Made by a program: the position numbers and the translations under genes. A DNA stretch of 63,395 nt, counting the filler. It is 5 parts of 5 records of this genome, joined end to end, with 100 filler letters (N's around TTAATTAATTAA, not from the genome) between each part and the next. Parts side by side here need not be neighbours in the genome. Positions count along the whole stretch, not along the records: positions 1 to 16,427 come from SRR31156797_3255; 4 more parts are not named here. The stretch is one strand, 5' to 3'. Below the pieces are notes generated by a model. The model ran no database searches and was not told the DNA's origin. It was given only the letters and a program-made list of their open reading frames with translations. Position 1 is the first letter of the stretch. The number at the start of each line of letters is the position of its first letter. Of the stretch, positions 680-16,527 are shown in pieces.

Positions 680-2291
680 CTTTAATCCCTTCTAAGTATT
701 CATTTTCAAAATATTTTATTGTACTTAGTACTGGATTTGGTGCTGTTTGACCCAAGCCACATAACGAACTATCTTGTACAACTTCACATAAATCTTTTAG
801 TAAAGAATAATCACTTCTAGTAGCTTCTTTTGCAATAAATTTATCTAGAAGTGAAGTTAATTCGGCAGTTCCTACTCTACAAGGTACACATTTTCCACAA
901 GATTCACTTTGACAAAAGTCCATAAAAAATCTTGCAACTTCAACCATATTAGAGTTTTCATCCATCACAATAAGTCCACCACTTCCCATAATAGAACCAA
1001 TAGATTTTAAAGACTCATAATCAACAGAAATATCAAGCAACTCTTCAGGAATACATCCACCACTAGGACCTCCTGTTTGTATAGCTTTTAGTTTTGTACC
1101 CTTAGTTAGTCCACCACCAACTTCATATATAAGTTCTCTAAGAGTTATTCCCATTGGAACTTCTACTAAACCAGTATTCTTTATATGTCCTGTTAGGGCA
1201 AATACTTTTGTTCCTGGAGATTTTTGGGTTCCTATACTTTTAAACCATTCCCCACCATTTCTAATTATTGGTGCAATATTTGCAAAGGTTTCTACATTAT
1301 TTAAAACTGTTGGTGATTTCCACAATCCATAATCACTTAAATGTGGAGGTTTTTGTCTTGGGTTTCCTCTGTTTCCTTCAATTGAAGTAACTAAAGCAGT
1401 AGCTTCACCACAAACAAAAGCTCCTCCACCAAGTCTAACTTCTAAATCGAAGCTAAAGCCACTTTCCGCAATTTGGTTTCCTAATATCCCTTTGTTTCTT
1501 GCTTGTTTAATAGCTTTATTTAGTTTTTGAACTGCAATTGGATATTCGGCTCTTACATAAATAAAACCTTTGCTTGCTCCACATGCATATCCTGCAAGTG
1601 TCATCCCTTCAATTATTTTATGTGGGTCTGCTTCCATAATTGCTCTATCCATAAAAGCACCAGGGTCACCCTCATCACCATTACAAATAATATATTTTTG
1701 TTCAGCATCAACTTTTGATACAGATTCCCACTTTAATCCAGTAGGGTAACCTCCACCACCTCTACCTCTTAAACCTGAAGTTTTAACCTCATTTAGTACA
1801 TCTTGTGCAGTCATATCATCAAGGGCTTTGTAAAGAGCTTGATAACCATCATAAGCGATATAATCATCAATATCATCGGGGTCTACTATTCCTGCATTTT
1901 CTAATACAATCTTTTTTTGTTTTTTGAAAAAGGCTTGTGAAGTATCGCATTTTTTATCTGCTATTGGAGTTTTTGTGTTTAAAGTTTCAATAAAATCCTC
2001 AGAGTTAGTAGATGAGATTTTACTATAGATAGATGTTCTATTGGTATCTTTATGGTAGTGTGCGACCATAATTCCTTCTGAACATAAACCACTGCACCCA
2101 ACGCCTTTTACTTTACATCTACTTTCTAACTTATTATCTTTTACATCTTTTTTTAGAGTTTTTAATAAATCCTCAGAGTTTAGAGAACAGCATCCACTTC
2201 CTACACAAACTCTTAACTCTTCATGGGAATTTCTTTTTAAGTCTCTTTTCTCTTGGGCTAGTTTTTGTAAGTCTTCCAGTGAATCAATCAT
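672..2291 (-). CDS. hoxF: Diaphorase flavoprotein subunit HoxF (NuoF-like, with N-terminal thioredoxin-like 2Fe-2S domain)
   Basis: SGLRGRGGGGYPTG, CNGDEGDPGAFMDR, GAFVCGEATAL, ESCGKCVPCRVG motifs; N-terminal CVGSGC..GCSGLCSEG. Confidence 0.88.
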   Translation of the reverse strand: MIDSLEDLQKLAQEKRDLKRNSHEELRVCVGSGCCSLNSEDLLKTLKKDVKDNKLESRCKVKGVGCSGLCSEGIMVAHYHKDTNRTSIYSKISSTNSEDFIETLNTKTPIADKKCDTSQAFFKKQKKIVLENAGIVDPDDIDDYIAYDGYQALYKALDDMTAQDVLNEVKTSGLRGRGGGGYPTGLKWESVSKVDAEQKYIICNGDEGDPGAFMDRAIMEADPHKIIEGMTLAGYACGASKGFIYVRAEYPIAVQKLNKAIKQARNKGILGNQIAESGFSFDLEVRLGGGAFVCGEATALVTSIEGNRGNPRQKPPHLSDYGLWKSPTVLNNVETFANIAPIIRNGGEWFKSIGTQKSPGTKVFALTGHIKNTGLVEVPMGITLRELIYEVGGGLTKGTKLKAIQTGGPSGGCIPEELLDISVDYESLKSIGSIMGSGGLIVMDENSNMVEVARFFMDFCQSESCGKCVPCRVGTAELTSLLDKFIAKEATRSDYSLLKDLCEVVQDSSLCGLGQTAPNPVLSTIKYFENEYLEGIKDA

Positions 2292-2767
2292 TTTATCAAC
2301 TCCTCTGCTTGGGCAACTGCATCATCAATCTCTAGGTGTCCAACAGTTTTATCATCATATATAGCAATTGGTGCAAGGGAACAGGCACCAACACATCTTG
2401 CACTTATTAAAGATATGAGGTTGTCTTTTGTTGTTTCACCAGCTTTTATTTTAAATCTATTTTCTATTTTTTCAAGTATTTTATTTGCATTTTTAATATA
2501 ACAGGCTGTACCCATACATACAACAATAGTATGTTCCCCTTTTGGTTTTAATCTAAAATAGTGATAAAAAGTTGCCACTCCAAAAACTTTTGAATATGGA
2601 AGTTTTAATCTTCGAGCAATAAATTTAAGGGTTTCATTTTCTAAATAACCAAAACTTTCTTGGGCAATATGTAAAGCTTCAATCAAGGCACTTCTGTCAT
2701 AATTTAACTTCTTCATTGTCTTTTCAACCATTTTGTATCGGGAATCATTGGGAACTGTAGCTATCAA
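2288..2767 (-). CDS. hoxE: HoxE (NuoE-like 2Fe-2S subunit)
   Basis: VATFYHYF, VCMGTACYIK, RCVGACSLAP; TTG start with AAGGA SD. Confidence 0.85.
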   Translation of the reverse strand: MIATVPNDSRYKMVEKTMKKLNYDRSALIEALHIAQESFGYLENETLKFIARRLKLPYSKVFGVATFYHYFRLKPKGEHTIVVCMGTACYIKNANKILEKIENRFKIKAGETTKDNLISLISARCVGACSLAPIAIYDDKTVGHLEIDDAVAQAEELIK

Positions 2768-3003
2768 AATAGATCCTTTGTAGGTTTTTATAATTATAGT
2801 AAGATTTAGTTACAAAATATCACTAATTTGTTTATTTATTATAAAATAACTACTTTAAAAAATAATAAAATAAAGAAGATTATAAAAGTAAGGAATAAAA
2901 TAAAATGAAAATATTATAAGTAAAATTTATATTAAATTAAGTAGTTTTTTAAGTATTTAGGGGTATTATTATTTTGATTAATTTCATGCATATCAAAAGA
3001 GTA

Positions 3004-3231
3004 TCATAAGAGATTTTTATGATACTCTTTTTTTTGTATTCTCAATATTGCGATATCCCAAACAATGTTTATTAATAGTCCTATAATTAGTGCGTATAAA
3101 ACATTAACACCAAAAATATCTCTATTTTTCAAAGTATTTAAAATGATAACACAAAGGGGCATACTCCAAATAAAAAAACTTTGGGCGATATGAATAACAA
3201 CAGGTTTCATTAAAGTAATTGCAGCAGCCAT
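3004..3231 (-). CDS. Small hydrophobic (two-TM) hypothetical protein downstream of c-di-GMP riboswitch
   Basis: 75-aa ORF, strong AAGGAG SD, two hydrophobic segments. Confidence 0.6.
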   Translation of the reverse strand: MAAAITLMKPVVIHIAQSFFIWSMPLCVIILNTLKNRDIFGVNVLYALIIGLLINIVWDIAILRIQKKEYHKNLL

Positions 3232-3280
3232 AATAATCTCCTTTTATAGGAGTCTCTTTGTTTAATTAGAATATTTTAAG

Positions 3281-3352
3281 TGGGTGCAACCCGACTATCT
3301 ACTTGAGACTCGTGGCTTTCCGTCCCTAAATCACTTTAGGTTTGGCAAAATA
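3281..3352 (-). ncRNA. c-di-GMP-I (GEMM) riboswitch
   Basis: Minus strand GCCAAACCTAAA-GTGA-TTTAGGGACGGAAAGCCACGAGTCTCAAGTAGATAGTCGGGTTGCA matches GEMM consensus (P2 with GYRA loop, GGGAC..AAAG junction, P3 ending GGGTTGC); equivalents of G20, A47 and C92 are present. Confidence 0.88.
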
Positions 3353-3417
3353 ATTATAATCTTATCATAAAAAATTATTTTTGTAAAGTAGTTTACTATT
3401 TTAAGGTGAGTATGGAA

Positions 3418-3693
3418 TTATTTTATATATTTTGTATAAAAATAAATGTGAGGACATTTCTCTTTTATAGTTGAGAGTGTAAATTTCATTTTTTCTAGAA
3501 CAAAATTACAACTTTGTATATTTTCTTCTGTGGGATTTGATATTATCAGTCCTGTACAAAGGGCATAGGTATCATTTAATACATCAATTTCATAAGTTAA
3601 AGAATAATATGTAATCAATTCGCCTTTCATCTTATAGTGTAGATAGTTTGATGAAATAATAGTCAGAGCAACAATTGAAAAAATAAAAATCAA
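3418..3693 (-). CDS. Hypothetical membrane-anchored/exported protein with Cys residues
   Basis: 91-aa ORF, N-terminal hydrophobic stretch; start uncertain. Confidence 0.5.
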   Translation of the reverse strand: MIFIFSIVALTIISSNYLHYKMKGELITYYSLTYEIDVLNDTYALCTGLIISNPTEENIQSCNFVLEKMKFTLSTIKEKCPHIYFYTKYIK

Positions 3694-3992
3694 TCCAATT
3701 TTAAATTTTTTGTTTATAACTTACCCTTTAAAATATAATACTTTTAATTTATCAGAAATGTCATAATAAAGTGCTGATTATGAAATAATAGAAAACAATA
3801 ATAATATAAATATTTAAAGACATTAAATAAATAAGAAAATAAAAAAAATTTTGATTTCATATTATTATTTACAATAGAAGTAGATAAATAATAATTGTAT
3901 AGTTTATTTAAACAGTCAATTATTAAATGCAGTTTAATAAAATATTAGCTTCTAATGAGTATAATAATTTTATTTTTTATTAAAGGGCATTT

Positions 3993-5297
3993 ATGGTAAA
4001 ACAATTTTTATTTTCTATTTCTACAGTAGCCATAATTTTTTCAGGGTGTACGCCTGCAAATAATAGAATAGACACTTCTACACTAACTGAATTACAAAAA
4101 CAACAATTATATAAAACATCTTTACACGAGGCAGTAAGGATTAATGATTTAGAAAAAGTTAAAGAGATATTAGCTGAAGGAAAAGATATTAATAGTAAAG
4201 ATAGGTTTGGTTATACCCCTTTACATCTTGCAGCAAGATTTAATCACTATGATATTGCAAACTATTTAATAGAACACGGTGCAGAAGTAAACTCAAAAGA
4301 TAAATATGGAGATTCTGCATTAATAGATACTACAAGAAATGGATATACAAACTTATCTAAACTTCTAATTTGTAATGGAGCAAAAAGGGATATTTTAGAT
4401 AAGTATGGAATGTCTGCATTACATTATGCTTCAAAAGTAAATGATGTTTTAATAGCAAAAATTCTAAGAGCAAAAGATATTGAACCTTTATGTAATAATA
4501 CTGCAAAAAAACAAGTTCAAAACAAAGAACAGTTTTATAATTTAATCACAATAGACGACTATAATGTTATTAATTCAGCTTCACCAAAAATTTGTGGAGA
4601 TATTCTTGATTTAGATGTGAGACAGGTACAAATAACTTTTGATGGAGGAAGAACAGTTACAAATGCAAAGTTAGATGACAAGAGATGGTGTGCAATCCCT
4701 TCTGAAAAAATCAAAAATGGAAATTATAATGTAATGGCCATGGCAATCAACTCTGCTAGACAAAAGGGTTTAGTAAAAGATGACTTAATCATAAAAGTTG
4801 AAAATATGTTGAGTAATACTTTAAAAAAAGAGTTTGAGAATGATTTAGAAAAATGGAATGCACAGTTTGACGAAGAGAGTTTAACAATAAGATTTAAAAA
4901 TCCTTCTGCTTTATTTGAAAGGGGAAGTATAAAAATCCAAGATAGATTTAAAAATATTCTAGATAGTTTTCTTCCAAGATATATAAATATTTTAAAAGAC
5001 TATAAGTCAAAAATATCAAGTGTACATATTGAAGGACACACTTCTTCAAGATATCGTTCAGCTTCAACTGATGAAGAAAAATTTGAGAAAAATAAAGTTC
5101 TTTCTCAAAAAAGAGCAGATTTAATTCTTAAATATCTAAACGAAAATAATGACCCTTTAATCTCAGAAAACTTGAACTTTATAAAAGAAAAATTCATTGC
5201 AATAGGAAAATCTTCTTCTGAACTAATTTACAAAGAAGATGGAAGTGAAGATTATGATTTATCTAGACGAGTTGAATTTAAGATAGAAAGTAAATAA
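3993..5297 (+). CDS. Lipoprotein: ankyrin repeats + Ig-like domain + OmpA/MotB-type peptidoglycan-binding domain
   Basis: Lipobox FSGC; GYTPLHLAA, GMSALHYAS ankyrin motifs; C-terminal IEGHTSS...LSQKRA...SRRVEF. Confidence 0.85.
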   Translation: MVKQFLFSISTVAIIFSGCTPANNRIDTSTLTELQKQQLYKTSLHEAVRINDLEKVKEILAEGKDINSKDRFGYTPLHLAARFNHYDIANYLIEHGAEVNSKDKYGDSALIDTTRNGYTNLSKLLICNGAKRDILDKYGMSALHYASKVNDVLIAKILRAKDIEPLCNNTAKKQVQNKEQFYNLITIDDYNVINSASPKICGDILDLDVRQVQITFDGGRTVTNAKLDDKRWCAIPSEKIKNGNYNVMAMAINSARQKGLVKDDLIIKVENMLSNTLKKEFENDLEKWNAQFDEESLTIRFKNPSALFERGSIKIQDRFKNILDSFLPRYINILKDYKSKISSVHIEGHTSSRYRSASTDEEKFEKNKVLSQKRADLILKYLNENNDPLISENLNFIKEKFIAIGKSSSELIYKEDGSEDYDLSRRVEFKIESK

Positions 5298-5303
5298 ACT
5301 ACT

Positions 5304-8300
5304 GTGGATAAAATTCAAAATATAATAAAAAGTATTAGAGAAGACCTTTGTGGTAATAAAGACTTTTCTCTATCTTTAAAAGATTTTATTGATTATAATC
5401 CAAATATTTCACAAACATATATAACTCTTTTTCAAGAGGGTGTTAAACCTATTAGGTGGGGTTCTAAAAAACAAACTTTAGAAGAGACTATCAAAAGAGA
5501 TATCTATAAACTAAAAAGTCATTCAAGATTTTCCTCTTTTGATGTAGAAGATAATAAAAAGTGTAGAATTCTTTTTGAGATGGTAACTGATGAAAAGCCA
5601 TGCAACATAAGAAACCTAACAAGTATTAAAATGCACTCTTCAAATAGATTTGAACCAGGAGTTACAGGATTAAAGTATACCTATGAAGGCATAACAAGAT
5701 TTTTTATGCCGACAGATGGGTATATCAAATCAATAATGAATGTAAAACAACTATTAAATTTCTTATCTAAACAGTGTGGCATAGCTAAAAAAACAAATCA
5801 AATTAGTGAACGAGCAAACTTGATGCGTAGAGAAGCTATTAAATACACTGCTTTAGAGTCAATTGCATATATAAGTTATGAAAATGAAGCATATAAGTTA
5901 GAAAGAGGATATCCTGTTCCTTTAGAGTTTTCAAAACAAATTGTTGAAGACAAACTTTTTAAAAGTCTTGATTGGCTCATAAATAATATGAATGATGATG
6001 GAAGTTTTTTATACTTTTATGACCCTTATGAAGATTCAGTAGTTGATTATCTTCATCCAGATATGAAAAACCCTTTATATAACAATATTCTAAGACATAG
6101 TGGTGGAACAATATCATTACTTAGAGGATACGAACTAAGTAAAAATAAAATCTATTTAGAAAGTGCAAAAAAATCTATTGATTTTTTTATATCAACTTTT
6201 AAAGAACACACTTATAAAAATGACTATGCTTGTTTCCCATTTTTTAACAAAAAATCAAAACTAGGTGGTGCAGGGATTGGTTTAGTTGCAATGATGCACT
6301 ACTATATTCACACACAAGATGAAAAGTATAGAAAATATTTAGATGGACTAGTAAGACATATCTTAAGTAGAGTTGATGAGCAAGGTGAGATGATAGGTTA
6401 CTACATACATCCAAAATTTAACAATGGAAATCCTATTATTAATCCAAGTGATGAAGTAAAAAAAGAGTTATTTTCTTTTTATTATCCAGGAGAAGCCTTA
6501 TTAGGACTTGCTTTATATTATTTAAATATAAAAAACTTAGATGAAAGCTTAAAAAAAGATATTCTATCAAAAAGTGAAAAAGCATTAGATTTTTTAGTTG
6601 ACGTTCGACCTACAAAGTATAGTTATATGTTTAAGTCTTTGCCTTCAGACGCTTGGCTTATGCAAGCAATAGAAGAATGGGTAAAAGTAGAAGGACTAAA
6701 GAAACAAAGTTATATAGATTTTGTTTTTGATGATACAAAGCAGATGTTAAGACATATGTATAGAGATGAAAATACACTAGATGTAAACAAAGACTACATT
6801 GGTGGTTTTTATTATAACTATGGAGATCATGTATATCATGACGCATCAAGATGTGAAGGTGTTATTAGTGCATACTATTTAGCAAAATATTTAAATGATG
6901 AAGAAAAAGCAAGTTGGATAATGAACAGTATGATGTTAAGTGCAAAAGGTTTAATGAAAACTTTTCACGATGAGAAATCGAACTATTGTCATATAAATCC
7001 TAAAAAAGCATTACATAGCTTTAGGTTTAAACTAACTAGACAATGGGTTAGAGTAGATTCTGTTCAACATGCAGCTTGCTTTTTTTCTAGACTTTTACCA
7101 ATATATTCTGAGTGCGAGAAAGCATTAGAAAATTACTCATTGATTTGTGGAAAATACCAAATATTAGAAGAGATAGATAAAGCAGGTTATAGCACTGTAT
7201 ATAAAGTTGAAGATATATATTCAAAAAAAGTTTATGCTTTAAAACATATAACCCATCCAAGATTTATGCAACTTGTAGAAAATGAACAAAAAGCCTTAGA
7301 AATAGTAAATGAACACTTACCTTTGAAGTTCTATGAAAAACTTGTTTCTGGAGGAAATGTATATTTTCTATTTGATTATGCAAAAGGAAAAAACCTAAAA
7401 AAACAAGTTGAAACAAAGGGTGCTTTTAGCCAAGATGAGGTAGAAAAATTTACTTTTGATATATTAAATACTTTAGAGTTTATAGCAGAGAAAAAACTTT
7501 TACATCTAGATTTAAAACCTGCAAATATTTTAAAGTATAAAGATTCTTATGCTTTGATGGATTGGGGAACTTCTCAAAGGATTTGGGTAAGTAATTCTGT
7601 TCACTTAAAAGGAAACCCTATTTATATAGCTCCTGAATACTATTTTGGAAAAAGAAATATTAAAAGTGAGTTATACTCTTTAGGATGTTCTATATATTTT
7701 CTTTTAGTTGGAAAACATATTTTTGGTTTACGAAAAAGAGATAATCTAGCAAAAAAAGTCTATCTACATCTTTATATAAAACCCGATTTATCGCAAATAA
7801 AATCAAAAAAAATGAGATATTTACTTTATAGACTTTTAGATAAAAACCCTTTTACTAGAGCAAACTTTGATGAAGTTAAACAGATACTAAAAGGTAAATA
7901 TGAAGATTTTGAGTACAAACAAGAAAAGATTTTAATTGACCTAAACGATGAGTATAAACTTTATGAAAGAATGGCAAACGATTCAGTTGCTTTTGCGCAA
8001 AATAAATATGCAAGATATTTTTTAGAAAAAGATAAAAATACTGCAATGTTATGGTTAGAAAAAGCTTCACAAGCTTCATATTCTATTGCACAAAATAAAT
8101 TAGCCTATATATATTTTACAGATAAAAAAGATTTAAATAAATCATTTTATTGGTTTAAAAAAGCAGCATTAGATGAACACGATATGGCATTGTATTATAT
8201 GGGTGTTTTTTATGAAAATGGGTATGTTGTTGAAAAAAATAAAGATATAGCAATCAAATACTATAAAAGCTCTGCAAATAAAGGTTATATACCTGCTTAT

Positions 8301-8342
8301 GAAAGATTGAATCAATTAGGAATTTATAATGAGTTCTTCTAA
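5304..8342 (+). CDS. Four-domain protein: AMMECR1-like + (alpha/alpha) toroid + Hanks-type Ser/Thr kinase + Sel1 repeats
   Basis: FEPGVTGL..FFMPTD (AMMECR1-like); DGSFLYFYDP..YNNILRHSG..KLGGAGIGL..YYPGEALLGL..RVDSVQH (toroid); ALKH, HLDLKPANIL, DWG, YIAPE (kinase); WFKKAA, YYMGVFYENGYVVEKN (Sel1). GTG start. Confidence 0.75.
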   Translation: MDKIQNIIKSIREDLCGNKDFSLSLKDFIDYNPNISQTYITLFQEGVKPIRWGSKKQTLEETIKRDIYKLKSHSRFSSFDVEDNKKCRILFEMVTDEKPCNIRNLTSIKMHSSNRFEPGVTGLKYTYEGITRFFMPTDGYIKSIMNVKQLLNFLSKQCGIAKKTNQISERANLMRREAIKYTALESIAYISYENEAYKLERGYPVPLEFSKQIVEDKLFKSLDWLINNMNDDGSFLYFYDPYEDSVVDYLHPDMKNPLYNNILRHSGGTISLLRGYELSKNKIYLESAKKSIDFFISTFKEHTYKNDYACFPFFNKKSKLGGAGIGLVAMMHYYIHTQDEKYRKYLDGLVRHILSRVDEQGEMIGYYIHPKFNNGNPIINPSDEVKKELFSFYYPGEALLGLALYYLNIKNLDESLKKDILSKSEKALDFLVDVRPTKYSYMFKSLPSDAWLMQAIEEWVKVEGLKKQSYIDFVFDDTKQMLRHMYRDENTLDVNKDYIGGFYYNYGDHVYHDASRCEGVISAYYLAKYLNDEEKASWIMNSMMLSAKGLMKTFHDEKSNYCHINPKKALHSFRFKLTRQWVRVDSVQHAACFFSRLLPIYSECEKALENYSLICGKYQILEEIDKAGYSTVYKVEDIYSKKVYALKHITHPRFMQLVENEQKALEIVNEHLPLKFYEKLVSGGNVYFLFDYAKGKNLKKQVETKGAFSQDEVEKFTFDILNTLEFIAEKKLLHLDLKPANILKYKDSYALMDWGTSQRIWVSNSVHLKGNPIYIAPEYYFGKRNIKSELYSLGCSIYFLLVGKHIFGLRKRDNLAKKVYLHLYIKPDLSQIKSKKMRYLLYRLLDKNPFTRANFDEVKQILKGKYEDFEYKQEKILIDLNDEYKLYERMANDSVAFAQNKYARYFLEKDKNTAMLWLEKASQASYSIAQNKLAYIYFTDKKDLNKSFYWFKKAALDEHDMALYYMGVFYENGYVVEKNKDIAIKYYKSSANKGYIPAYERLNQLGIYNEFF

Positions 8343-10707
8343 TTTAACTTTTACATTAAAAGAGATGGAGTCACTTGTAAATGGAAAATGGATAAATCTG
8401 TCCCCCAATCTTTTAATAAACGATTTTGTTCACATACTAAGTCAAGTGAAACAAGGTGATATTTTTGTTGTATCTTATGAATCTTGGTACAATAAAAAAA
8501 ACAGTAATGAAGACGAAATCCCACAAGCAATAAAAAATGGTGCAAGTGCATTATTCGTTGAAGAGCAAACAGATATCTCAAATATCAATATTCCTGTATT
8601 TGTAGTAAAAAACAGTTATGAAGCTTTGAAAAAGTTAGCAAAACACTCTTCTTTGAACTCAAAAGCAAAAAAACTTTTAATAACAGGAAGTTACGGTAAA
8701 ACAGGTTTTAAAAATCATCTTTATACTCTAAGTAATCAAAAAAACATATATGCAAGACTTCATAGTTCTAATAGATTTGCAACAACTTTATGCACTTTAG
8801 TTTCTATAAAAAAAGACACAAAACTTTTTTTAATAGAAGTTCCAATTAGAAGAAAAGATAGAATTCAAAAAAGCTCAAAGTATATTAAACCCAATATGTG
8901 TGTTATCACATCAATTGGACATGAACATATAGAGATACATGGTTCAATAGAAGAGATAATAAGACAAAAATGTTTAGTTGCAAGTAGCTTAAAAGAGGGT
9001 GAAAAAGTTATAATTCCAGGAGATTCTGAGTATACAAAACTTTTAAAAAAAGAGTTGAAAAAATATAAAGGAATAGTAGTTTTAACTTTTGGTGAAAGTG
9101 AAAATTGCAATGCTCAAATCCTTAACAAATATTTTATAGATAACAAATGGGTAATAACTGCAAGAATTGAGTTTGAGATTATTCAGTATGAAGTTCATTT
9201 TGTAGAAGAGCATGCACCTTCAAGTTCTGTTGCAGAACTATTGTGTTTAAAACACATGGGAGAAGATATTTATTCTTGTGCAAATAAATTTATTAAGTGT
9301 AAAAACTATAAAAGTAGTGGAAAACTATACAAAATAGAGTATAAAAACAAAGAGTTACTTCTTTATGACCAAAGCTCTAGAGGTGGAGTTGAAGGTTATA
9401 AATCTTTTTTTAAAACTATAAGAAGACTAGACTTTAAAAAAAACAGTAGAAAAATTGTTTTAAGTTCAGAGTTTGTTGATTTAAAAGATGGAGAGGATAA
9501 GTTTTTAGATATTCAAAGATTCCAAGAGTTGATTACAAAAGCAGAAATAACTCAATTTTATGGAGTTGAAAACTTTAATCATCATGAAGAAGTTATTAGT
9601 GATAAAACCATATATAAAGGTAATTACCCAAATCCAAATGAACTAGCAGAGAGTTTTTTTGATACTTTAAAAGATGGAGATATTATTTGTATAAAAGGTA
9701 TCTTTGAAAGTAATATTAACAAAGTAGTAAAAAAGCTTTTATCTAGTAGTAAACCTTTACCACGATATTTAATAAAAGAGTTTGATACTAACACTTTAAA
9801 AGGGTGTGAGGTTTTAAGTATAAAACATAAAGAGCTTTTTAAAACCTATTTAAAAGAAAAAAAAGTAGCTTTATGGTGTCAGTTTTTCCCTTTCTTATTC
9901 TCTTTTTCAAAATCAAAATCTAAAAAAATCTTAGTAAAAAAAGATGAAAGTTCACTAAGTGTTTTTTACCTAAGAAATATTAATAAAGCAGAAAAAATCT
10001 CTTTACAATTGTTTTTTATCCCTTTTCCTTTTAATTTTGAAGTATTAAAAAAGAGTTTAAATATAGTAAAACAATTTAATAAACAATCCCAAGTTACAGT
10101 AACTTGGTTAGATGATGAAGATATTTCAAATATAAAAAAACATAAAGAGTTTGCAGAAAATATTGAGTTTATACAAAAAGAGTATGAGTTTATTTTTGAT
10201 TCATCGTTATATTATAATCTTGCAGGTGGAAAATTAAGAAGTTTAAGGCAGCAAATAAATTGGGTAAATAGATTAGAAGATGTTAAAATTGTACCTTATA
10301 AAAAAGAATATTTAGATGATGCCTTAAAACTATATGACAAATGGAAAAAGTTTCAAGAAGATAAATATGATTTAATAACAGATGAAAATTATACTAAAAA
10401 TGCATTGTTTTTTTATGAAAGCTTTAAAGATGAATTAAAAGGTTTAGTTGTTTTAATAAAAGGTGAATTAAAAGCTTTTGGTTTTTATGGAAATATAAAT
10501 GAAACTACAATAAATATGTTTATTGCAAAGAGTGATTTAGAAATAAAAGGTTTACAACAGTTCTTAAAATACAATATTTTGTTGAATTCAAAAGATTTAA
10601 TTGTAAATGATGGAAGTGCAGAAAGTCAAGGTTTGTTTGATTCTAAAAAGAAATTAAATCCACTTTTTTTAAAAAAAGTTTATAAAGCAAGATATAATTT
10701 TATTTAA
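8329..10707 (+). CDS. MurF-like Mur ligase fused to DUF2156 (aminoacyl-tRNA-dependent transferase/LPG-synthase C-terminal-like) domain
   Basis: ITGSYGKT P-loop, VITSIGHEHIE, DIICIKG; C-terminal YEFIFD..LAGGKLRSLRQQIN..KGLQQFL..GLFDSKKKLNP. Confidence 0.75.
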   Translation: MSSSNLTFTLKEMESLVNGKWINLSPNLLINDFVHILSQVKQGDIFVVSYESWYNKKNSNEDEIPQAIKNGASALFVEEQTDISNINIPVFVVKNSYEALKKLAKHSSLNSKAKKLLITGSYGKTGFKNHLYTLSNQKNIYARLHSSNRFATTLCTLVSIKKDTKLFLIEVPIRRKDRIQKSSKYIKPNMCVITSIGHEHIEIHGSIEEIIRQKCLVASSLKEGEKVIIPGDSEYTKLLKKELKKYKGIVVLTFGESENCNAQILNKYFIDNKWVITARIEFEIIQYEVHFVEEHAPSSSVAELLCLKHMGEDIYSCANKFIKCKNYKSSGKLYKIEYKNKELLLYDQSSRGGVEGYKSFFKTIRRLDFKKNSRKIVLSSEFVDLKDGEDKFLDIQRFQELITKAEITQFYGVENFNHHEEVISDKTIYKGNYPNPNELAESFFDTLKDGDIICIKGIFESNINKVVKKLLSSSKPLPRYLIKEFDTNTLKGCEVLSIKHKELFKTYLKEKKVALWCQFFPFLFSFSKSKSKKILVKKDESSLSVFYLRNINKAEKISLQLFFIPFPFNFEVLKKSLNIVKQFNKQSQVTVTWLDDEDISNIKKHKEFAENIEFIQKEYEFIFDSSLYYNLAGGKLRSLRQQINWVNRLEDVKIVPYKKEYLDDALKLYDKWKKFQEDKYDLITDENYTKNALFFYESFKDELKGLVVLIKGELKAFGFYGNINETTINMFIAKSDLEIKGLQQFLKYNILLNSKDLIVNDGSAESQGLFDSKKKLNPLFLKKVYKARYNFI

Positions 10708-10751
10708 AGAGATAAATGATAAAGTTATTATTTTAAAATGAAAGGCATAAA

Positions 10752-11771
10752 ATGAGTAATCTATTTTCAAATATTTTAAAAAGTAAGTTTTTATTACTAA
10801 GTATCTTTTTTATTTTTAATCTTTATGGAAATATTGAAGTAAAACTAAACAAGTTAACTGCTACTATCATATTTACAGAGTCTTTGATGGATAAAGCAGG
10901 AAGACCTAAAGAGTTAAAAAAGATATATCTCGAAAGTTATAAAGATGACAATAGATTAAAAAATATTTTAAGAGAAACAAAACCCTTATACAAGAAATTA
11001 AGAGTATCAAAAATCTATAATCACCCAAAAACAGAAAGACTTTTTTCTGCAATTATGATAGAAAGTACATTTACAAATGATATAAATACTTTAGAATCAA
11101 AAATATTAAGTTATAAACTAGCTGTCTCTTCAAAAATGATAAAAAACTATTTCTCTATGCTTAAAGAGTTTGCACCTATTTATGATGAGTTAATTTGGAA
11201 ACCAAATTATCAAAAACTTTCAGAAGCAAAAGCACAAATAGAAGGTTTGATTGAGCAATTAAAAAAATCAAATGTACAAAGAAAAGTAGAAAACTTCTAT
11301 CATATAAAAGAGGGTGAAGCAAGACCTTTTTATGTAAATCTTTATCCTATTCCAAATGCAAAAGGTTTTAAAGCTTTAAGAATAGAAAATACTGCACCAG
11401 TTGGAATCATAATAAACAACAAAAAACTAAACTTAAAATGGTTTTTTAGTGCAGTAATTTTCCACGAGCAATGTCATGAGTATTTTGCACAATATAAAGA
11501 AAACATTAGACAAATGATTAAAAAAAATAAAAAATCAAGTGCAAAAGCATTTTTTAGAACTTTTGATGAAAGCTTACAAACTTCTATAGGTGCAGGATAT
11601 ACATATTATACATTGAGAGGAAAACTTTCTAAAGGTAAATGGTATAATAATAAAGTATATGATAACTTAGCAAAACGAATTCTACGAGAAGTAAGTATTT
11701 ATCTAAATAATAATAAACAAATTGATGAAGAATTTATTAAAAAAACAATTCAAGAATATAAGAAAATTTAA
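10752..11771 (+). CDS. Exported putative zinc metallopeptidase (HEXXH)
   Basis: Signal-like N-terminus; IFHEQCHEYF followed by FDESLQTSIG (possible third-ligand Glu). Confidence 0.55.
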   Translation: MSNLFSNILKSKFLLLSIFFIFNLYGNIEVKLNKLTATIIFTESLMDKAGRPKELKKIYLESYKDDNRLKNILRETKPLYKKLRVSKIYNHPKTERLFSAIMIESTFTNDINTLESKILSYKLAVSSKMIKNYFSMLKEFAPIYDELIWKPNYQKLSEAKAQIEGLIEQLKKSNVQRKVENFYHIKEGEARPFYVNLYPIPNAKGFKALRIENTAPVGIIINNKKLNLKWFFSAVIFHEQCHEYFAQYKENIRQMIKKNKKSSAKAFFRTFDESLQTSIGAGYTYYTLRGKLSKGKWYNNKVYDNLAKRILREVSIYLNNNKQIDEEFIKKTIQEYKKI

Positions 11772-11780
11772 AGGGCAAAA

Positions 11781-13676
11781 ATGAAGCAAACTTTAGAAAA
11801 TATATCAGTTGTAATACCTTGTTATCCACCTGATATAAAGAGTTTAAAAGAGAACTCTATTCCATCATTTAAAAACTCAACTTATAATCCTTTGGAGATT
11901 ATTGTAGCTTTAAGTGAAACAAATGATGAAGATGCCTTAAATTTAGAAAATGAGTTAAATAAACTATACGATTTTAAAATCAAAATATCAAATACCCCAG
12001 AACAAAAATATGCAGGTGAAAATAGAAACAGAGGGGCAGAAATCTCACAAGGTGAGATAATTGTATTTTTTGATTCTGATGATGAAATACATCCTCAAAA
12101 GTTAGAAATCACTGATTATATATTTAAAAAGTATAAACCTAAAATGTTTATGCACCATTGGCAAGGGTATTCAAGAAGATACCAAGAATATGATAAAGAG
12201 AATTTAGAGATAGTAACTTCTGATACTTTGAGTGAATTCACTTATGGAAAAAATGAAAACCCAAAGTGGATATTTGTAGATACTTATGCAAAAAGTGAAT
12301 GGGGACAAAACAAAAGTCATCCTCACCATGGACATGTTGCAATAGAAAGATCTGTTTTTGATGAGATTCAATACACTAACAAAAAAAGAGGTCAAGATGT
12401 TGAGTTTTGTCTAAAAGTTCTTAAAAAATACAATAACACAGTTTTTGCAAATGTAAAACTTGTAAACTATATCATGGACGATAGTAAAAAGATTTTAGAG
12501 CCAATTGTAAAATGGTGGGAAGATGACTATAAAGTTGAAGTAACTGAAATAAAAAATGACCCAAATCATAAGTATGCAATCTTAATGTTAGATGCCTTTA
12601 CTGATGAAAACTATAAACAATACAACGAATATAACTCTTTACTGTCAAAGGCAAGTGCTGATGAAGTATGGTCTTACTATCCAGTTATGGGCAAAAAATA
12701 TAAAGCAGATGATAAACTAGTTAGAAAAGCAAGTGTTATTGAGCCTTATTTACTTTATGAATACTTTAGAGACAACAATATCAAGCATAAAATTTGGTAC
12801 AAAAACTCACTTTTTATTTTAAATGATTCATTATATAGAATCACAAATTATAAGGTTTATAAAGAGGATTTAACAAACCTAAATATAGCTTGTTTAAGAG
12901 AGAGTTGGTCTCATCCATTTTTTGGATTTTTAGAGATAATTTTAGAAAAAGCAAACGGTAAGTTATGTAAACCAAATATGGGAACATTGAGAAATGCTGG
13001 ATGTATGAACAAACTTTATGGTTTAAGGGAGTTATATTCAAAAAGAGATGAATATATACAAGATATTGTAATTCCTTACAATATAGCTCCATATCAATAT
13101 GATGTTTTTTTATCTTTTTTAAGAGATTATTTTGGAAAAGAGTTAGTTTTCAAGATTGATTGTATCCAAGAAGGGCGTGGAGTTATTTTCAAAAACATAG
13201 AAAAGTCACTTCAACTAGATAAAATTGGACCAATTTTAGATAAACAAGGTCAAAAATCAAAAGAGATTTTTATAACACCAGCATTTACTATAGCTGAAGA
13301 GTTTAGGTGTTATTTCACAAAAGATAAACAAAATAATGTAACTGTTTATTCCATAAAACAAAGAAACAACAAATCATCAAAAGAGGAACTTTTCAAAACA
13401 GATAACATCCATATTTATAAAAACATTGATGTTTCATGGAGAGAGATTAAGTTTGGTAGTGATGATTTTATAAAAGCTTCAAATATAGCAAAAGATATGG
13501 TTTCTATGATGACTTATACATCAGGAAGTATTGAGTTTGGTATAACAAAAGAGGGCAAAATTGTATTCTTTGAAGTGAATCAAATGGCAGGACCTTTACC
13601 ATTTGTTGGTGAAGATTTAAAAAATATGAATAAATACTATAAAGCAATTTTTGATCAAATGTTTGAAGATGCATGA
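11781..13676 (+). CDS. GT2 glycosyltransferase fused to C-terminal RimK-like ATP-grasp domain
   Basis: ISVVIPCY, NRNRG, FFDSDD, GQDVEF (GT2); LVFK..QEGRGV..EEFRCY..IEFG..FFEVNQMAG (ATP-grasp). Confidence 0.75.
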   Translation: MKQTLENISVVIPCYPPDIKSLKENSIPSFKNSTYNPLEIIVALSETNDEDALNLENELNKLYDFKIKISNTPEQKYAGENRNRGAEISQGEIIVFFDSDDEIHPQKLEITDYIFKKYKPKMFMHHWQGYSRRYQEYDKENLEIVTSDTLSEFTYGKNENPKWIFVDTYAKSEWGQNKSHPHHGHVAIERSVFDEIQYTNKKRGQDVEFCLKVLKKYNNTVFANVKLVNYIMDDSKKILEPIVKWWEDDYKVEVTEIKNDPNHKYAILMLDAFTDENYKQYNEYNSLLSKASADEVWSYYPVMGKKYKADDKLVRKASVIEPYLLYEYFRDNNIKHKIWYKNSLFILNDSLYRITNYKVYKEDLTNLNIACLRESWSHPFFGFLEIILEKANGKLCKPNMGTLRNAGCMNKLYGLRELYSKRDEYIQDIVIPYNIAPYQYDVFLSFLRDYFGKELVFKIDCIQEGRGVIFKNIEKSLQLDKIGPILDKQGQKSKEIFITPAFTIAEEFRCYFTKDKQNNVTVYSIKQRNNKSSKEELFKTDNIHIYKNIDVSWREIKFGSDDFIKASNIAKDMVSMMTYTSGSIEFGITKEGKIVFFEVNQMAGPLPFVGEDLKNMNKYYKAIFDQMFEDA

Positions 13677-13688
13677 AGGGTGAGTGAG

Positions 13689-15548
13689 ATGGAAGAAACG
13701 ATTTTTATACAAATAGCAAGCTACAGGGATCCAGAGTGTAGAAATACAGTAAAAGATATTTATGAAAAAGCACAAAATCCTGAGAATATTTTTATTGGTA
13801 TTAATTGGCAATACCATGAAGATGATGACTTTGATGCAATATATGAAGACCAACCATATTCTAAAAATGTAAGAATAGCAAGATTTCATTGTACTGAGTC
13901 AAAAGGTGTTTGTTGGGCAAGAGCTGAAACTCAAAAACTATATAAAGACGAGAAATACACTTTACAACTTGATTCACATATGATATTTATCAATAATTGG
14001 GATATAGAACTACTTGCAATGTATAAACAGTTACTTGATAAAGGTATTGAAAAACCAGTTATTTCTCACTATCCACCAAACTATACTTTAGACGGAAAGT
14101 TTGATAACTGGCAAGGTAAAATGGCTCCTTATATTAGAGAGAGTGAAAAGATTATCTATTTTAAATTAACAGGTTACCAAATCAAACAAGATAATTCTCC
14201 TTTGATACCTTCTGCTTGTATTGCAGGGGGAATGTTTTTTGCCGATGCAAGTTGTATAAAAGAGATTCCTTATGACCCAAATATCTATTTTTATGGAGAA
14301 GAGATAACTTTAAGTACAAGATTTTGGACACATGGTTGGGATATTTATAACCCTTCAAAAATTGTATTATGGCATCTTTTTAAATCAGAAGAAAAAAATG
14401 GTACAAAAATAGAAACAAGAAAAATAGATACTCACTGGTACGACCAGCCAGATGAATATGAAAGATTAAATCAGCGTTCTATAAAGAGAACAAGACACTT
14501 TTTTGGTACAGAATTTAGTAACGACAAAGGTGTAACTATTGATTTAGATAAATATAAATTAGGAACAAAAAGAACACTTCATCAATATGAACTTTTTGCA
14601 GGTGTAGATTTTTATCAGTTAGAAAGAACACAGTTTGCATCTTCAGGGATTGTATTTGAAAACAAAGAAGAGAACAAAACTGCATATAAACAAGAAAATG
14701 AATCTTTTTATGAGATAAAAAAATATGATAAAGATAGCATAAAATCAGTTTATGATTTCATCTCTAAGTTAGATATAAAAAAAGTTGCAAGCCTAATTTC
14801 GTATGGGTATGATAACTTTGTAAATATCTACAACAAAGATATTGAATATATTGGGCTTGATTTGTTTGAAAATAATTGTGAACAAAATAGATATTTCTAT
14901 AGACATATAAAAAATGTTTATCATTCTCAAGTAAACTTTTTCAAAGAACCATTGCCTTGTGTTGATTTACTTTTAGCGGTAGATTTATTTGAAAAAATAG
15001 ATAAATATGAGATATCAAAAATTCTTTTAAGTGCTTCAAAATCTGGGATAAAATATGTTGCAACAAGTTTAAATAAAGATGATAAAAAGCTTGATTCTCT
15101 TCCAAATACTTGTTTTTCTATCCCTTTTACAGATAAAAAGGTTTTAAATTTCTGGAATATTGAAGATTTAAAAATTTATTTTTACTATTTAACAGGAAAA
15201 GAAGATTCTTTGAGAAAACAAATTATTCCTGTTTTGAAAAAGCAATTAAAAATTGTTGAAGAGAGTATGAAAGGATTAGAAAAAGATTACAAAAATATTA
15301 TTTTTTATATTTTTAGTTTAAGAAACTCTAAAGAAGCAAGAAAAATATACAATAAACCTGAAGTTCAAGAAAAATTATTATTTGATATGTCAAAGGGAAA
15401 AAATAGTATTAATTATATTTTCAACCTAAGATATTTCTCAAATCTTGATATTATAAATCGAGATTTTCCTTCAATAAAAAAAGAGGATTCAGATTTCGTT
15501 ACATCCCTAATTTGCGAATATTTACGAATTTATTATAAAAGTTTGTAG
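13689..15548 (+). CDS. GT60/'GlcNAc' family (Skp1 Gnt1-like) protein GlcNAc transferase with degenerate SAM-methyltransferase-like C-terminal domain
   Basis: IFIQIASYRDPEC, SKGVCWAR, LQLDSHMIF, PYDPNIYFYGEEI..RFWTHGWDIYNP; C-terminal YIGLDL..VDLLLAVDLF. Alternative GTG start at 13680. Confidence 0.8.
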   Translation: MEETIFIQIASYRDPECRNTVKDIYEKAQNPENIFIGINWQYHEDDDFDAIYEDQPYSKNVRIARFHCTESKGVCWARAETQKLYKDEKYTLQLDSHMIFINNWDIELLAMYKQLLDKGIEKPVISHYPPNYTLDGKFDNWQGKMAPYIRESEKIIYFKLTGYQIKQDNSPLIPSACIAGGMFFADASCIKEIPYDPNIYFYGEEITLSTRFWTHGWDIYNPSKIVLWHLFKSEEKNGTKIETRKIDTHWYDQPDEYERLNQRSIKRTRHFFGTEFSNDKGVTIDLDKYKLGTKRTLHQYELFAGVDFYQLERTQFASSGIVFENKEENKTAYKQENESFYEIKKYDKDSIKSVYDFISKLDIKKVASLISYGYDNFVNIYNKDIEYIGLDLFENNCEQNRYFYRHIKNVYHSQVNFFKEPLPCVDLLLAVDLFEKIDKYEISKILLSASKSGIKYVATSLNKDDKKLDSLPNTCFSIPFTDKKVLNFWNIEDLKIYFYYLTGKEDSLRKQIIPVLKKQLKIVEESMKGLEKDYKNIIFYIFSLRNSKEARKIYNKPEVQEKLLFDMSKGKNSINYIFNLRYFSNLDIINRDFPSIKKEDSDFVTSLICEYLRIYYKSL

Positions 15549-15550
15549 TG

Positions 15551-15569
15551 GAAACTTTATAGAAACTTT
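15551..15569 (+). promoter_or_regulatory. Tandem GAAACTTT direct repeat with 11-bp period upstream of adhesin gene (OmpR/PhoB-type box candidate)
   Basis: GAAACTTT-ATA-GAAACTTT at 15551 and 15562. Confidence 0.4.
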
Positions 15570-15614
15570 TTTTATATATAGTTAAGCTATAGGAATATAC
15601 TTAAAGGCTTAACT

Positions 15615-16427
15615 ATGACACTTATAATCAGACACATTAACGGCGAGATAGAAGAATTAAATGTTACAGGAAATATGGAGATTAAACCTCTTGAAGGGGA
15701 ACAACTATATTTTTTAGGTGCAGATAAATATTCGTTTTCATTAGCAGATGGCGAAGAAACAATCAAACTTAATTTAGTAGAGGGTACACAAAGATTTGAA
15801 ATAACTCTTGACCAGATGGCAGAGTTAATTAAAAACAATAAACCTGATGATATTTTTGCCTTAAATACTGCACTTGGTGTGTCTGCCACAGTTGACGGTG
15901 AAAAAGAGATTATGGATGCTGTTAATAATCCTGACTTCGAAAGTGGAGAGATTATTAATGCATTAAAAGAGAGTCTAGCTTTAAGTACTTTGGCTGATAT
16001 GGATGGGTCAATCATAGATAATTTTGGGTCTTTAGCAGAATATTTAGAGGCTGCAGCAGCTGGTGAAGAGTCAAGTGATGGGTCTTTGTTTATTGAAGAA
16101 GATAGAAATCAAGAGGTAACACCTGCAGAGGAGACTGAGAGAAGCGAAAGAATTGAAACAGAAGAAGATTCAACTACAACAGAAGATACCACGACTACAG
16201 AAGATACCGAAACTACAGAGGATACTGAAACTCCTGAAGATACAGAAACTATAGAAGATACTACTACTGATGAAGATACTACAACTTCTGAAGATACAAG
16301 TTCAGATGAAGATACATCAACAACAGAAGATACAAGCTCTGACGAAGACACAGAAACAATAGAAGATACAGAAACAACTGAAGATACAAGTTCAGATGAA
16401 GATACAGGTACGACTGAAGATACAAGC
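15615..16427 (+). CDS. N-terminal part of a LapA-like/T1SS adhesin (retention region + acidic Thr-rich repeats), truncated by contig end
   Basis: No signal peptide; LEAAAAG resembles the di-alanine LapG cleavage motif; followed by an acidic linker and EDTxxx repeats. Confidence 0.65.
16164..16427 (+). repeat. 18-bp/6-aa tandem repeat (EDTxxx), 14 full units plus a partial one, running into contig end
   Basis: EDSTTT EDTTTT EDTETT EDTETP EDTETI EDTTTD EDTTTS EDTSSD EDTSTT EDTSSD EDTETI EDTETT EDTSSD EDTGTT EDTS. Confidence 0.95.
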
Positions 16428-16527
16428 NNNNNNNNNNNNNNNNNNNNNNNNNNNNNNNNNNNNNNNNNNNNTTAATTAATTAANNNNNNNNNNNNNNNNN
16501 NNNNNNNNNNNNNNNNNNNNNNNNNNN
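16428..16527. other. Artificial contig linker
   Basis: N44-TTAATTAATTAA-N44 (stops in all six frames); composition changes across it. Confidence 0.98.

Follow-up and report, generated by a model that had tools for sequence, protein, structure and literature searches.

This report concerns a run of seven genes, p1 to p7, in a 63,395-base window (the whole stretch of DNA that was analyzed), which is composed of five contigs. The finding lies entirely within contig 1 (positions 1-16427; about 27% GC, 24-34% per 2-kb window), where seven open reading frames (ORFs) on the + strand succeed one another with gaps of 6, -14, 44, 9, 3 and 66 bp. These coordinates and gaps bear out the co-oriented, tightly spaced run of six genes leading to a repeat protein that was described in the original prediction. 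Relatives of the central genes recur beside genes for proteins with long repeats of acidic and hydroxylated residues, and the features from which the comparison starts are the following.

3993..5297, + strand: p1, ankyrin/Ig-like (Big_13)/OmpA-MotB-type peptidoglycan-binding lipoprotein (Pfam)
5304..8342, + strand: p2, AMMECR1-fold domain (residues ~1-200), (alpha/alpha)6 toroid (~210-600), Ser/Thr kinase (618-860) and Sel1 repeats (to 1005) (Pfam, AlphaFold2, Foldseek)
8329..10707, + strand: p3, MurF-like Mur-family ligase fused to a DUF2156/MprF-C-type domain of the aminoacyl-tRNA transferase fold (Pfam)
10752..11771, + strand: p4, exported or membrane-anchored protein of unassigned family with an HEQCH (HExxH) motif (motif, hydrophobic N-terminus)
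11781..13676, + strand: p5, glycosyltransferase family 2 (GT2) domain (residues 9-196, DSDD motif) and probable ATP-grasp ligase domain (~240-631) (Pfam, ESM atlas)
13680..15548, + strand: p6, protein resembling polypeptide N-acetylglucosamine (GlcNAc) transferases of family GT60 (PF11397; residues 1-~320), with a partly methyltransferase-like C-terminal region of ~300 residues (Pfam, relatives)
15615..16427, + strand: p7, 5'-terminal 271 codons of a giant LapA-like surface protein without a signal peptide, with an N-terminal module (residues 1-~150) and a Glu/Asp/Thr stalk
16044..16064, + strand: LEAAAAG, candidate di-alanine (LapG-type) processing site at p7 residues 144-150 (read from sequence)
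16163..16427, + strand: 18-nt tandem units encoding (E/D)(E/D)T-x-(T/S)-x hexapeptides, running into the contig end (Tandem Repeats Finder)

The multidomain proteins p2 and p3 form the center of the cluster. For p3, the call of a MurF-like ligase joined to DUF2156 held, with both domains over their Pfam cut-offs: Mur_ligase_M scores 71 bits (cut-off 24) and LPG_synthase_C (DUF2156, PF09924) 38.8 bits (cut-off 27.5; residues 612-756). The P-loop GSYGKT is invariant in all 14 homologues compared. MurF is the nearest named family, yet the score of 121.7 bits stays below the TIGR01143 cut-off of 288.6, and no CphA family model in NCBIfam matched the protein. p3 is a paralogue and not the housekeeping enzyme. 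Its 27 clear homologues (E<=1e-60) occur either as the same Mur-DUF2156 fusion or split, and Halarcobacter bivalviorum carries a p3 homologue.

The predicted succession of AMMECR1, toroid, Ser/Thr kinase and Sel1 domains in p2 was confirmed by Pfam for the kinase and Sel1 repeats and is supported by modeled fold matches for the rest. Pkinase scores 109 bits (cut-off 31.7) at residues 618-860, and the Hanks-type kinase motifs K, E, HxDxKxxN, DWG and APE are conserved across 10 aligned homologues, of which that in locus L002 is N-terminally truncated. The N-terminus has no family match, the AMMECR1 family of Pfam included, and among sequences of solved structures it retrieved just mannanases of glycoside hydrolase (GH) family 76, at E 0.2-0.9. 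An AlphaFold2 model of residues 1-610, built from an alignment of 13 homologues, reached a predicted local distance difference test (pLDDT) score of 83.7 and a predicted template modeling (TM) score of 0.85. In a Foldseek comparison its first ~200 residues matched 1zq7 (E 2.4e-5, TM score on the target 0.56) and 1vaj (E 3.1e-4, TM score 0.63), which we take to be AMMECR1-type proteins, and residues ~210-600 matched (alpha/alpha)6 toroids of the GH76, GH88 and 2-epimerase types at E 3e-5 to 1e-4. The toroid matches comprise GH76 mannanases, a GH88 glucuronyl hydrolase, cellobiose and GlcNAc 2-epimerases and squalene-hopene cyclase. Identity over the N-terminal 610 residues is 67-76% in eight Campylobacterota loci, 56% in a further one, L006, and 31% in the distant loci L013, L019 and L107. 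A lanthipeptide synthetase, as a toroid plus a kinase might suggest, was considered and rejected: there is no LanC-type chain among the Foldseek matches listed, the match to LanL spans the kinase domain alone, and the visible p7 stalk is free of Cys.

The last gene, p7, is cut inside its repeats by the contig end at 16427, an assembly break. Reading of the sequence and the repeat finder agree with the description of a signal-less protein with LEAAAAG and EDT repeats: there is no hydrophobic N-terminus or signal peptide, the LEAAAAG motif is a candidate LapG site, and the array has a period of 18 with 7.5 to 10.7 copies and 68-77% matches. In a library of 1.84 billion proteins, 42 representatives start with the N-terminal module at residue 1, and many of these are 2,000-8,000 residues long. 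The pattern [LIVMFE][ED]A[ATPS]AAG lies near residues 139-147 in 12 of the 42 and also in two N-terminally truncated fragments (at residues 68 and 83), and A148 of p7 is nearly invariant in the module alignment. Two Halarcobacter genomes, G001 and G002, encode p7 orthologues (57% and 55%) of 2563 and 1402 residues that carry LDAAAAG or LDATAAG. A (TD)n/(SD)n stretch of ~700 to 1900 residues comes next, and the proteins close with a folded C-terminal region and an Asp-rich tail; genes for a sensor kinase, a response regulator and a TolC-family protein lie downstream of the adhesin gene, the TolC-family gene two genes away. LapG-family genes exceeded their cut-off in all five cluster-bearing genomes searched, versus one of 14 control genomes. 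The N-terminal module was modeled with a pLDDT of 84.3; fold matches to RTX block V of adenylate cyclase toxin, to LipA and to large clostridial toxin repeats were rejected, their Z scores of 4.0-4.2 being at chance level. The LapA likeness originally proposed is supported by the signal-less N-terminus, the di-alanine motif and the giant orthologues; the curated retention module gave no match. p7 probably works like LapA and is at most a candidate member of that family.

Searching one genome per species with the p3 alignment as query gave 26 loci, of which 19 (L001-L019) proved to be genuine relatives. Their sources are Halarcobacter, Aliarcobacter, Sulfurimonas, Sulfurovum, Methylobacter and other Methylococcaceae (Methylococcales), Oceanospirillum (L019 in Oceanospirillum beijerinckii DSM 7166) and a metagenome-assembled genome (MAG) of Geobacteraceae. 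Every one of the 19 holds Mur-type ligases, one to three each; a secreted protein of ~320 residues with an invariant HExFH motif is present in 16, the AMMECR1-toroid protein in 12 (often as a stand-alone gene of ~610 residues), DUF2156 in 10 and the kinase in seven. By Pfam these loci also contain ATP-grasp proteins (RimK/ATPgrasp_ST), Fic-like genes (L001 and L008) and NTP-transferase plus aminotransferase genes. Three Sulfurimonas loci (L010, L012 and L014) are headed by an ABC transporter, an HlyD-family adaptor and a LuxR-type regulator, and in L010 the first two score as LssB-type ABC transporter (775 bits against 693) and type I HlyD (374 bits against 208). The components are also found fused to each other, as toroid and kinase in the window, toroid and Mur ligase in L004, toroid-like domain and DUF2156 in L005, and kinase, Mur ligase and Sel1 in the protein P0024; these fusions tie the parts of the cluster together.

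Three further observations concern the contents of these clusters. Between the cluster and the adhesin gene of G001 lies a PGA_cap (CapA-like) gene (L188:225-1337) that resembles the lasso-peptide C-terminal epimerase MslH (E 2.9e-12) and might epimerize or process added residues. Proteins of 945-1134 residues that match the HExFH profile are conserved in the larger clusters (L010:13586-16963, L012:13928-17332, L004:15095-18412 and L018:6334-9171), with a Receptor-L/leucine-rich-type domain in L010 and L018 and an ATP-grasp domain in L004. The toroid gene of G073 (C15:43042-44859) contains one in-frame TAA, which could reflect a sequencing error, a pseudogene or a split gene.

To define repeat proteins, every ORF of every locus was passed through a filter of 60-residue windows with Asp/Glu of at least 25%, Ser/Thr of at least 30% and a sum of at least 70%. 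We found nine physical adjacencies between a cluster and a repeat protein, spread over at least five lineages, with repeats of the types (SD)n, (TD)n, (SDDD)n and (EDT)n and with the repeat gene upstream, downstream or convergent. The carriers belong to Arcobacteraceae, Sulfurimonas, Sulfurovum, Methylobacter and Oceanospirillum, and one is a Pseudomonadota MAG without further classification. In the window, p7 follows p6 after 66 bp. A (DT)n(DS)n protein ends 3 bp ahead of the p3 homologue in L006; an (SDDD)n protein, continuing into antifreeze-type repeats, precedes the toroid gene in L013; an (SD)n protein of more than 880 residues precedes a Mur ligase in L016; and a (DS)n protein stands at the cluster end in L012. 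The L005 protein (8795-11386, - strand) is complete at 863 residues, with (TSP)n, (DA)n and (DS)n blocks, lies before the toroid-DUF2156 gene and matches the LapA retention module NF033682 at 100 bits (cut-off 50). In G001 and G002 the genes of the p7 orthologues share the strand of the cluster and start 1-2 kb downstream of it. Several of the repeat proteins are cut by contig ends, which repeats of this kind would lead one to expect. A distant locus, L022, encodes a (TDTPx)n protein of another kind and was left out of the count.

Repeat ORFs occurred in five of the 19 loci of the Mur cluster versus one of 158 GT60 loci, that one being L027 (Fisher p 5e-5). Homologous cassettes lie not in lipopolysaccharide, capsule or cell-wall loci but beside repeat proteins in nine loci, so that the central idea of the original prediction withstood the refutation it had named for itself. 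The co-occurrence that the original prediction proposed to look for in a neighborhood survey was recovered as a recurring link to acidic/hydroxy-repeat proteins, with type I secretion genes in or beside related loci. The partner proteins have a single feature in common, a regular lattice of side-chain carboxylates beside hydroxyls. The 42 representative proteins with the p7 module all failed the repeat filter, which marks the repeats as peculiar to cluster-linked members rather than common to such adhesins at large.

Two details of the repeat proteins are recorded here in their own right. The (DA)n block of the L005 protein offers carboxylates and no hydroxyls, and its blocks follow the LapA retention module. 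In Sulfurimonas and Oceanospirillum, a shared short motif outside the repeat pattern, GNNG(F/H)GNGDQ(E/D)APG..S..NNAEN, appears inside or after the SD array (L012:21543-22373, L013:1-1740 and L016:1-2667) and could be a recognition or processing element.

The association was also assessed across whole genomes with a degenerate nucleotide pattern for eight Asp-(Ser/Thr) codon pairs, (D-S/T)8, in a sample of 201 Campylobacteria drawn evenly from the class of G003. The toroid profile was present in two of the 201 (G003 and G073), and the repeat pattern in the same two and in none of the 199 others. G003 was the chosen center of the sample, so this amounts to one independent draw (p 0.005). The cluster-bearing genomes covered in addition to this sample number 15, namely G001-G008, G073, G209-G213 and the genome of L027, which has p4-p6 only. 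Among these, the pattern occurs in four of five further Sulfurimonas genomes, mostly at contig ends, and in three of five gammaproteobacterial or Geobacter carriers.

The genes p4, p5, p6 and p7 have no BLAST match at E<=1e-5 in any of the 19 core loci. p6 was found in none of five cluster-bearing genomes, which places GT60 outside the core. The GT60 assignment of p6 itself is firm (PF11397, 215 bits against a cut-off of 21), and D98 and H100, a DxH that is presumably metal-binding, are invariant in 18 full-length homologues; the methyltransferase-like part of the original call draws its support solely from relatives of ~517 residues, which give weak class I methyltransferase matches in the region where p6 aligns. 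In p5 the GT2 domain was upheld (55 bits in Pfam), while the ATP-grasp domain stays at the level of a lead: the C-terminal part scores 17.3 bits against R2K_2 ATP-grasp (cut-off 26.2, E 0.004), a weak match, and its best ESM atlas cluster is 'ATP-grasp domain protein' at 0.91 with 184 shared features, within a range of 0.89-0.91 for ATP-grasp/RimK clusters. The same region has no meaningful solved relative by sequence and no TupA-type match. For p4, described as an HEXXH peptidase, the motif HEQCH is present but no credible family match places it among peptidases: nothing matched at E<=0.01 in Pfam/NCBIfam, PADLOC gave no match, and at E<=10 there were only chance-level matches (E>=0.045). The idea that p4 is a diverged member of the HExFH family was rejected at an hhalign probability of 0.6%. 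Its one known orthologue, in L027, is 37% identical and keeps the motif as HEICH.

L027, from the Pseudomonadota MAG, is the only locus among the species representatives with a full-length p6 relative (50% identity). It has orthologues of p4, p5 (56%) and p6 in the same order as the window, and directly upstream of them lies the C-terminal end of an E-D-T hexapeptide protein that runs off the contig start. A metagenome scan, from which 78 distinct loci were kept, added one more full-length p6 relative, in L107 (32% identity). There and in L038, a short Gallionellaceae contig, the toroid, kinase-Sel1, HExFH and GT60 genes follow in order. GT60 is linked to the core in three loci. More broadly, PF11397 has 1908 matches in prokaryotic data. 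Many bacterial GT60 proteins (P0057-P0167; loci L028-L106), mainly from Rickettsiales-like Alphaproteobacteria and filamentous cyanobacteria, are fused to prolyl-4-hydroxylase-type 2-oxoglutarate oxygenases, GT2 domains or methyltransferases. A GT60 and a prolyl hydroxylase in one bacterial polypeptide are the enzyme pair of the eukaryotic Skp1 hydroxyproline glycosylation pathway.

The first gene, p1, fits the ankyrin-Ig-OmpA description in Pfam (Ank_2 133 bits, OmpA 37 bits), with Big_13 at 24.7 bits slightly below its cut-off of 27, and has a lipoprotein-type N-terminus (...FSGC). In the comparison of 19 core loci its orthologues are confined to the Halarcobacter loci L001 and L004 (48-49% identity). 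The C-terminal 165 residues resemble the ZorB2 periplasmic domain (PADLOC E 5.6e-51; NCBIfam 136 bits, cut-off 400), and this wall-binding domain (4794-5297, residues 268-432) is much nearer to ZorB2 than to the usual OmpA/MotB models. The ZorB cut-off is not reached, and PADLOC found no further Zorya component in p1-p7.

The cassette is composite, with a widespread core (p2-p3), an accessory module (p4-p5-p6) and the Halarcobacter-confined p1. Of the single dedicated cassette in the original prediction, the tie to an acidic/hydroxy-repeat protein is retained and the unity is lost. The proposal that O-glycosylation of the repeats is the task of the system agrees with the glycosyltransferase genes beside the EDT stalk, but fails as a general feature: most relatives have (SD)n or (TD)n repeats and neither GT60 nor GT2, which makes glycosylation a variable extra and leaves the ligase and kinase chemistry as the conserved part. 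That conserved part would be side-chain aminoacylation or amidation together with phosphorylation, and O-glycosylation would be an extra tied to the E-D-T stalk.

Outside the cassette, the window contains the following features.

2-2767, - strand: NuoE-, NuoF- and NuoG-like genes for Fe-S/flavin subunits (2Fe-2S thioredoxin-like, 51-kDa FMN, Fer2_4/4Fe-4S)
16428-16527, 25368-25467, 38044-38143 and 54352-54451: four artificial linkers between the contigs, N44-TTAATTAATTAA-N44, not biology

The Nuo-like genes are divergent from the cassette, upstream of it across a 1.2-kb gap, and stand outside the finding. The linker at 16428-16527 joins unrelated contigs, so nothing past 16427 can serve as context for p1-p7. 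With GC contents of ~27%, 36%, 48%, 57% and 51% (range given 27% to 58%), the record resembles a bin, probably a mixed one, whose contigs were strung together, more than it does a single genome. For contig 1 the nearest relatives are Halarcobacter (75-76% identity for the p2 N-terminus, 55-57% for that of p7), which makes the initial guess of an Arcobacteraceae source reasonable. A scan for promoters gave 72 promoter-like sites versus 84.7 expected from shuffles; terminator-like sites numbered seven, with none in the gaps between the seven genes, and the scan is uninformative in such AT-rich DNA.

We lean, with a confidence only a little above even, toward the reading that the cassette covalently decorates the acidic/hydroxy stalk of the LapA-like protein in the cytoplasm before type I secretion. 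We infer this function from genomic association and enzyme families, and each chemical step from family membership. p2, p3, p5 and p6 lack export signals and need ATP, nucleotide sugars or aminoacyl-tRNA, so they would act in the cytoplasm before export. Hanks kinases phosphorylate Ser/Thr, and the kinase may do so on the stalk before the protein leaves the cell. The Mur-type and ATP-grasp ligases would activate Asp/Glu side-chain carboxylates as acyl phosphates and then join amino acids or amines to them through isopeptide bonds, as the M domain of cyanophycin synthetase (CphA1) does on poly-Asp. The DUF2156 fold transfers aminoacyl groups from tRNA, and here this domain may donate such a group. 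In the window, p6 would in addition place GlcNAc on Thr, and p5 would extend the sugar and amidate a carboxylate, as Cj1438 does on capsule. The decorated protein would leave by a type I system, and its N-terminal module would retain it at the surface up to cleavage at the AAAAG site, while p1 and p4, which have export signals, could act on it in the periplasm.

Several points weigh against this reading. No modification has been observed, the chemistry being drawn from the enzyme families, and the most conserved component, the AMMECR1-toroid protein, is given no role in the scheme, its fold relatives acting on sugars and not on proteins. Type I secretion threads unfolded chains through a narrow channel, where bulky side-chain peptides or glycans might block export. 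As to p7, residues 1-160 and the G001 orthologue have no match to the LapA retention module NF033682 at E<=0.1, and the model of the module has no solved relative (none at E<=1e-3 by Foldseek; best Z 4.2 by VIA). The trio p4-p5-p6 occurs together in only two loci, and L038 and L107 have GT60 without p4 or p5 and with no repeat protein visible on their short contigs. Related genomes share features by descent, so that the profile counts are not independent draws; G008, G209 and G211, all draft MAGs, carry the cluster without the (D-S/T)8 pattern; and in G003 the repeat genes are on contigs C9 and C10 and the cluster on C4.

The alternative to which we give most weight, though we consider it unlikely, is that the product of the cluster is a peptide or glyco-peptide polymer in its own right, assembled without ribosomes on a nucleotide or lipid carrier, which leaves the cell together with the repeat protein and does no more than interact with it. 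Such a polymer could be cyanophycin-, poly-gamma-glutamate- or murein-stem-like, for example a cationic polymer that binds the acidic stalk in a biofilm matrix. The several Mur-ligase paralogues per locus would suit it, as would the ATP-grasp, NTP-transferase plus aminotransferase and PGA_cap (CapA-like) genes and the ABC-2 or ABC/HlyD exporters, which together are the gene kit of a precursor-based polymer; the toroid fold comes from sugar-acting enzymes, and MurF is the nearest named family of p3. The annotated loci, however, have no polymerase, flippase or lipid-carrier transferase, and a separate polymer leaves unexplained both the enzyme trio that goes with the E-D-T variant and the constant Asp/Glu plus Ser/Thr array of the partner, which differs in sequence and agrees in chemistry across five lineages.

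An improbable but consequential variant is that the Mur paralogues, whose nearest families are MurF and MurE, build peptides like peptidoglycan stems on the Asp/Glu of the stalk, producing a 'protein-templated murein brush' that could be cross-linked to the wall. The ATP-grasp and tRNA-dependent enzymes would contribute to these peptides, and periplasmic transpeptidases could link the stalk covalently to the cell wall. Three neighbors fit such a scheme: p1, a lipoprotein that binds the wall; the HExxH proteins, which are exported; and a muramoyl-L-alanine amidase next to the L010 cluster. If true, it would be a Gram-negative counterpart of sortase anchoring, with the first Mur-family ligases acting on protein.

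We give little credence to a stalk that is cross-linked to itself, in which ATP-dependent ligases would form Ser/Thr-Asp/Glu ester or isopeptide bridges in the manner of graspetides (microviridin-type) to yield a stiff, protease-resistant rod. The repeats do supply both graspetide partners, hydroxyl and carboxylate, and ATP-grasp proteins are present in the loci. Mur-family ligases, though, are known solely to join a carboxylate to an incoming amine and not to a hydroxyl of the same chain; bridging could dispense with the kinase, the glycosyltransferases, the tRNA-dependent transferase and as many as three or four ligase paralogues; and a type I channel would scarcely let a cross-linked stalk pass.

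It is more doubtful still that the adjacency is coincidental or merely regulatory, a clustering of two surface-related islands. That G003 keeps its repeat genes off the contig of the cluster, and that the sampled genomes are related and so represent few independent events, would be expected of chance; the nine adjacencies, in different gene orders and orientations and in several lineages, and the absence of the repeat pattern from all 199 toroid-negative genomes argue against it. A defense or conflict system with a ZorB-like anchor and a MADS/PD-T4-6-like kinase, unrelated to the repeat protein, is suggested by the PADLOC matches of p1 to ZorB2 (E 5.6e-51) and of the p2 kinase to mad6 (E 6.5e-32) and PD-T4-6 and by the Fic-like genes of L001 and L008, but is highly improbable, as the matches cover generic domains alone (OmpA/MotB-type wall-binding and Hanks kinase) far under their cut-offs (136 against 400 and 74 against 460 bits), ZorA and other Zorya or MADS components are absent, p3 to p7 have no PADLOC match, and most loci lack p1.

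Decoration of the stalk, the reading we prefer, can be set beside several known systems. In staphylococci, SdgA and SdgB add GlcNAc to SD repeats (PMC3794999). There, as proposed here, dedicated cytoplasmic enzymes serve the long Ser-Asp stalk of a surface adhesin (ClfA, SdrC/D/E; PMC3794999), and p7 relatives have such (SD)n/(TD)n stalks. The repeats of the G001 stalk even give it scores against the SdrC/SdrD/ClfA models. The staphylococcal adhesins belong to Gram-positive bacteria, leave the cell by Sec and are anchored by sortase, whereas the proteins considered here are predicted Gram-negative type I substrates. SdgA and SdgB belong to GT4, a family other than GT60 and GT2, and the Sdg system has no counterpart to the Mur-type and ATP-grasp ligases, the tRNA-dependent transferase fold, the kinase or the AMMECR1-toroid protein. 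In the serine-rich-repeat adhesin loci of Gram-positive bacteria (GtfA/GtfB, accessory Sec), the adhesin gene lies among genes for the enzymes that decorate its repeats before dedicated export. The concept is the same, but the enzyme families differ, export is by accessory Sec and not by a type I system, the repeats are not acidic, and there are no ligases or kinase. The repeats of the Ehrlichia tandem-repeat protein (TRP) effectors are acidic and Ser-rich and are modified by host enzymes after secretion; unlike the proteins described here, TRPs have, to our knowledge, no accompanying bacterial enzyme cassette. They are secreted by type I systems (PMC8112483, PMC10225607).

For the chemistry, the Mur-like M domain of cyanophycin synthetase phosphorylates a side-chain carboxylate of poly-Asp and then forms an isopeptide bond between it and an amino acid (PMC9262961). 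CphA1 thus combines an ATP-grasp (G domain) and a Mur-type ligase (M domain) in the chemistry proposed for the stalk Asp/Glu; it is a single polypeptide that makes its own non-ribosomal backbone, whereas here separate ligase paralogues would act on a secreted protein of ribosomal origin. The link is one of mechanism and not of family membership. Campylobacter jejuni Cj1438, of the HS:2 capsule, has an N-terminal GT2 domain and a C-terminal ATP-grasp domain that amidates a sugar carboxylate (PMC11800379). It comes from the same phylum and shares the two-domain layout of p5, but the p5 C-terminus matches the R2K clade weakly, and p5 lies beside GT60 and a repeat protein and not in a capsule locus. 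GT60 includes the polypeptide alpha-GlcNAc transferase of T. cruzi (PMC6939170).

For the substrate, p7 shares with the RTX adhesins of the LapA/LapG/LapD system a giant signal-less protein with an N-terminal module ahead of an Ala-Ala-Gly site, with type I ABC/HlyD/TolC genes in or beside related loci and LapG-family genes in related genomes; it differs in a stalk of low-complexity acidic/hydroxy repeats rather than Ig-like domains and in a module outside the curated model. We found no modification cassette for LapA-type adhesins in the literature. The literature search, outside which most subscription journals lay, returned no account of the cluster, nor of enzymes that modify repeat adhesins of type I secretion. 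The concept has Gram-positive precedents in Sdg and the serine-rich-repeat loci, but there is no precedent for the set of enzymes, the route of secretion or the chemistry proposed.

Mur-family ligases are known from cell-wall precursors, folate, poly-gamma-glutamate and cyanophycin. If decoration of the stalk is true, a ribosomal protein would be a new substrate class for them, and the cluster would be the first machinery known to be dedicated to modifying giant adhesins of type I secretion. It would also explain why (SD)n, (TD)n and (EDT)n genes, which are kilobases long and break most assemblies, persist in unrelated bacteria of sulfidic, methane-rich and marine habitats. Two orphan components, the AMMECR1 domain and the bacterial GT60 enzymes, gain a testable context, and Halarcobacter is a cultivable genus that carries the system.

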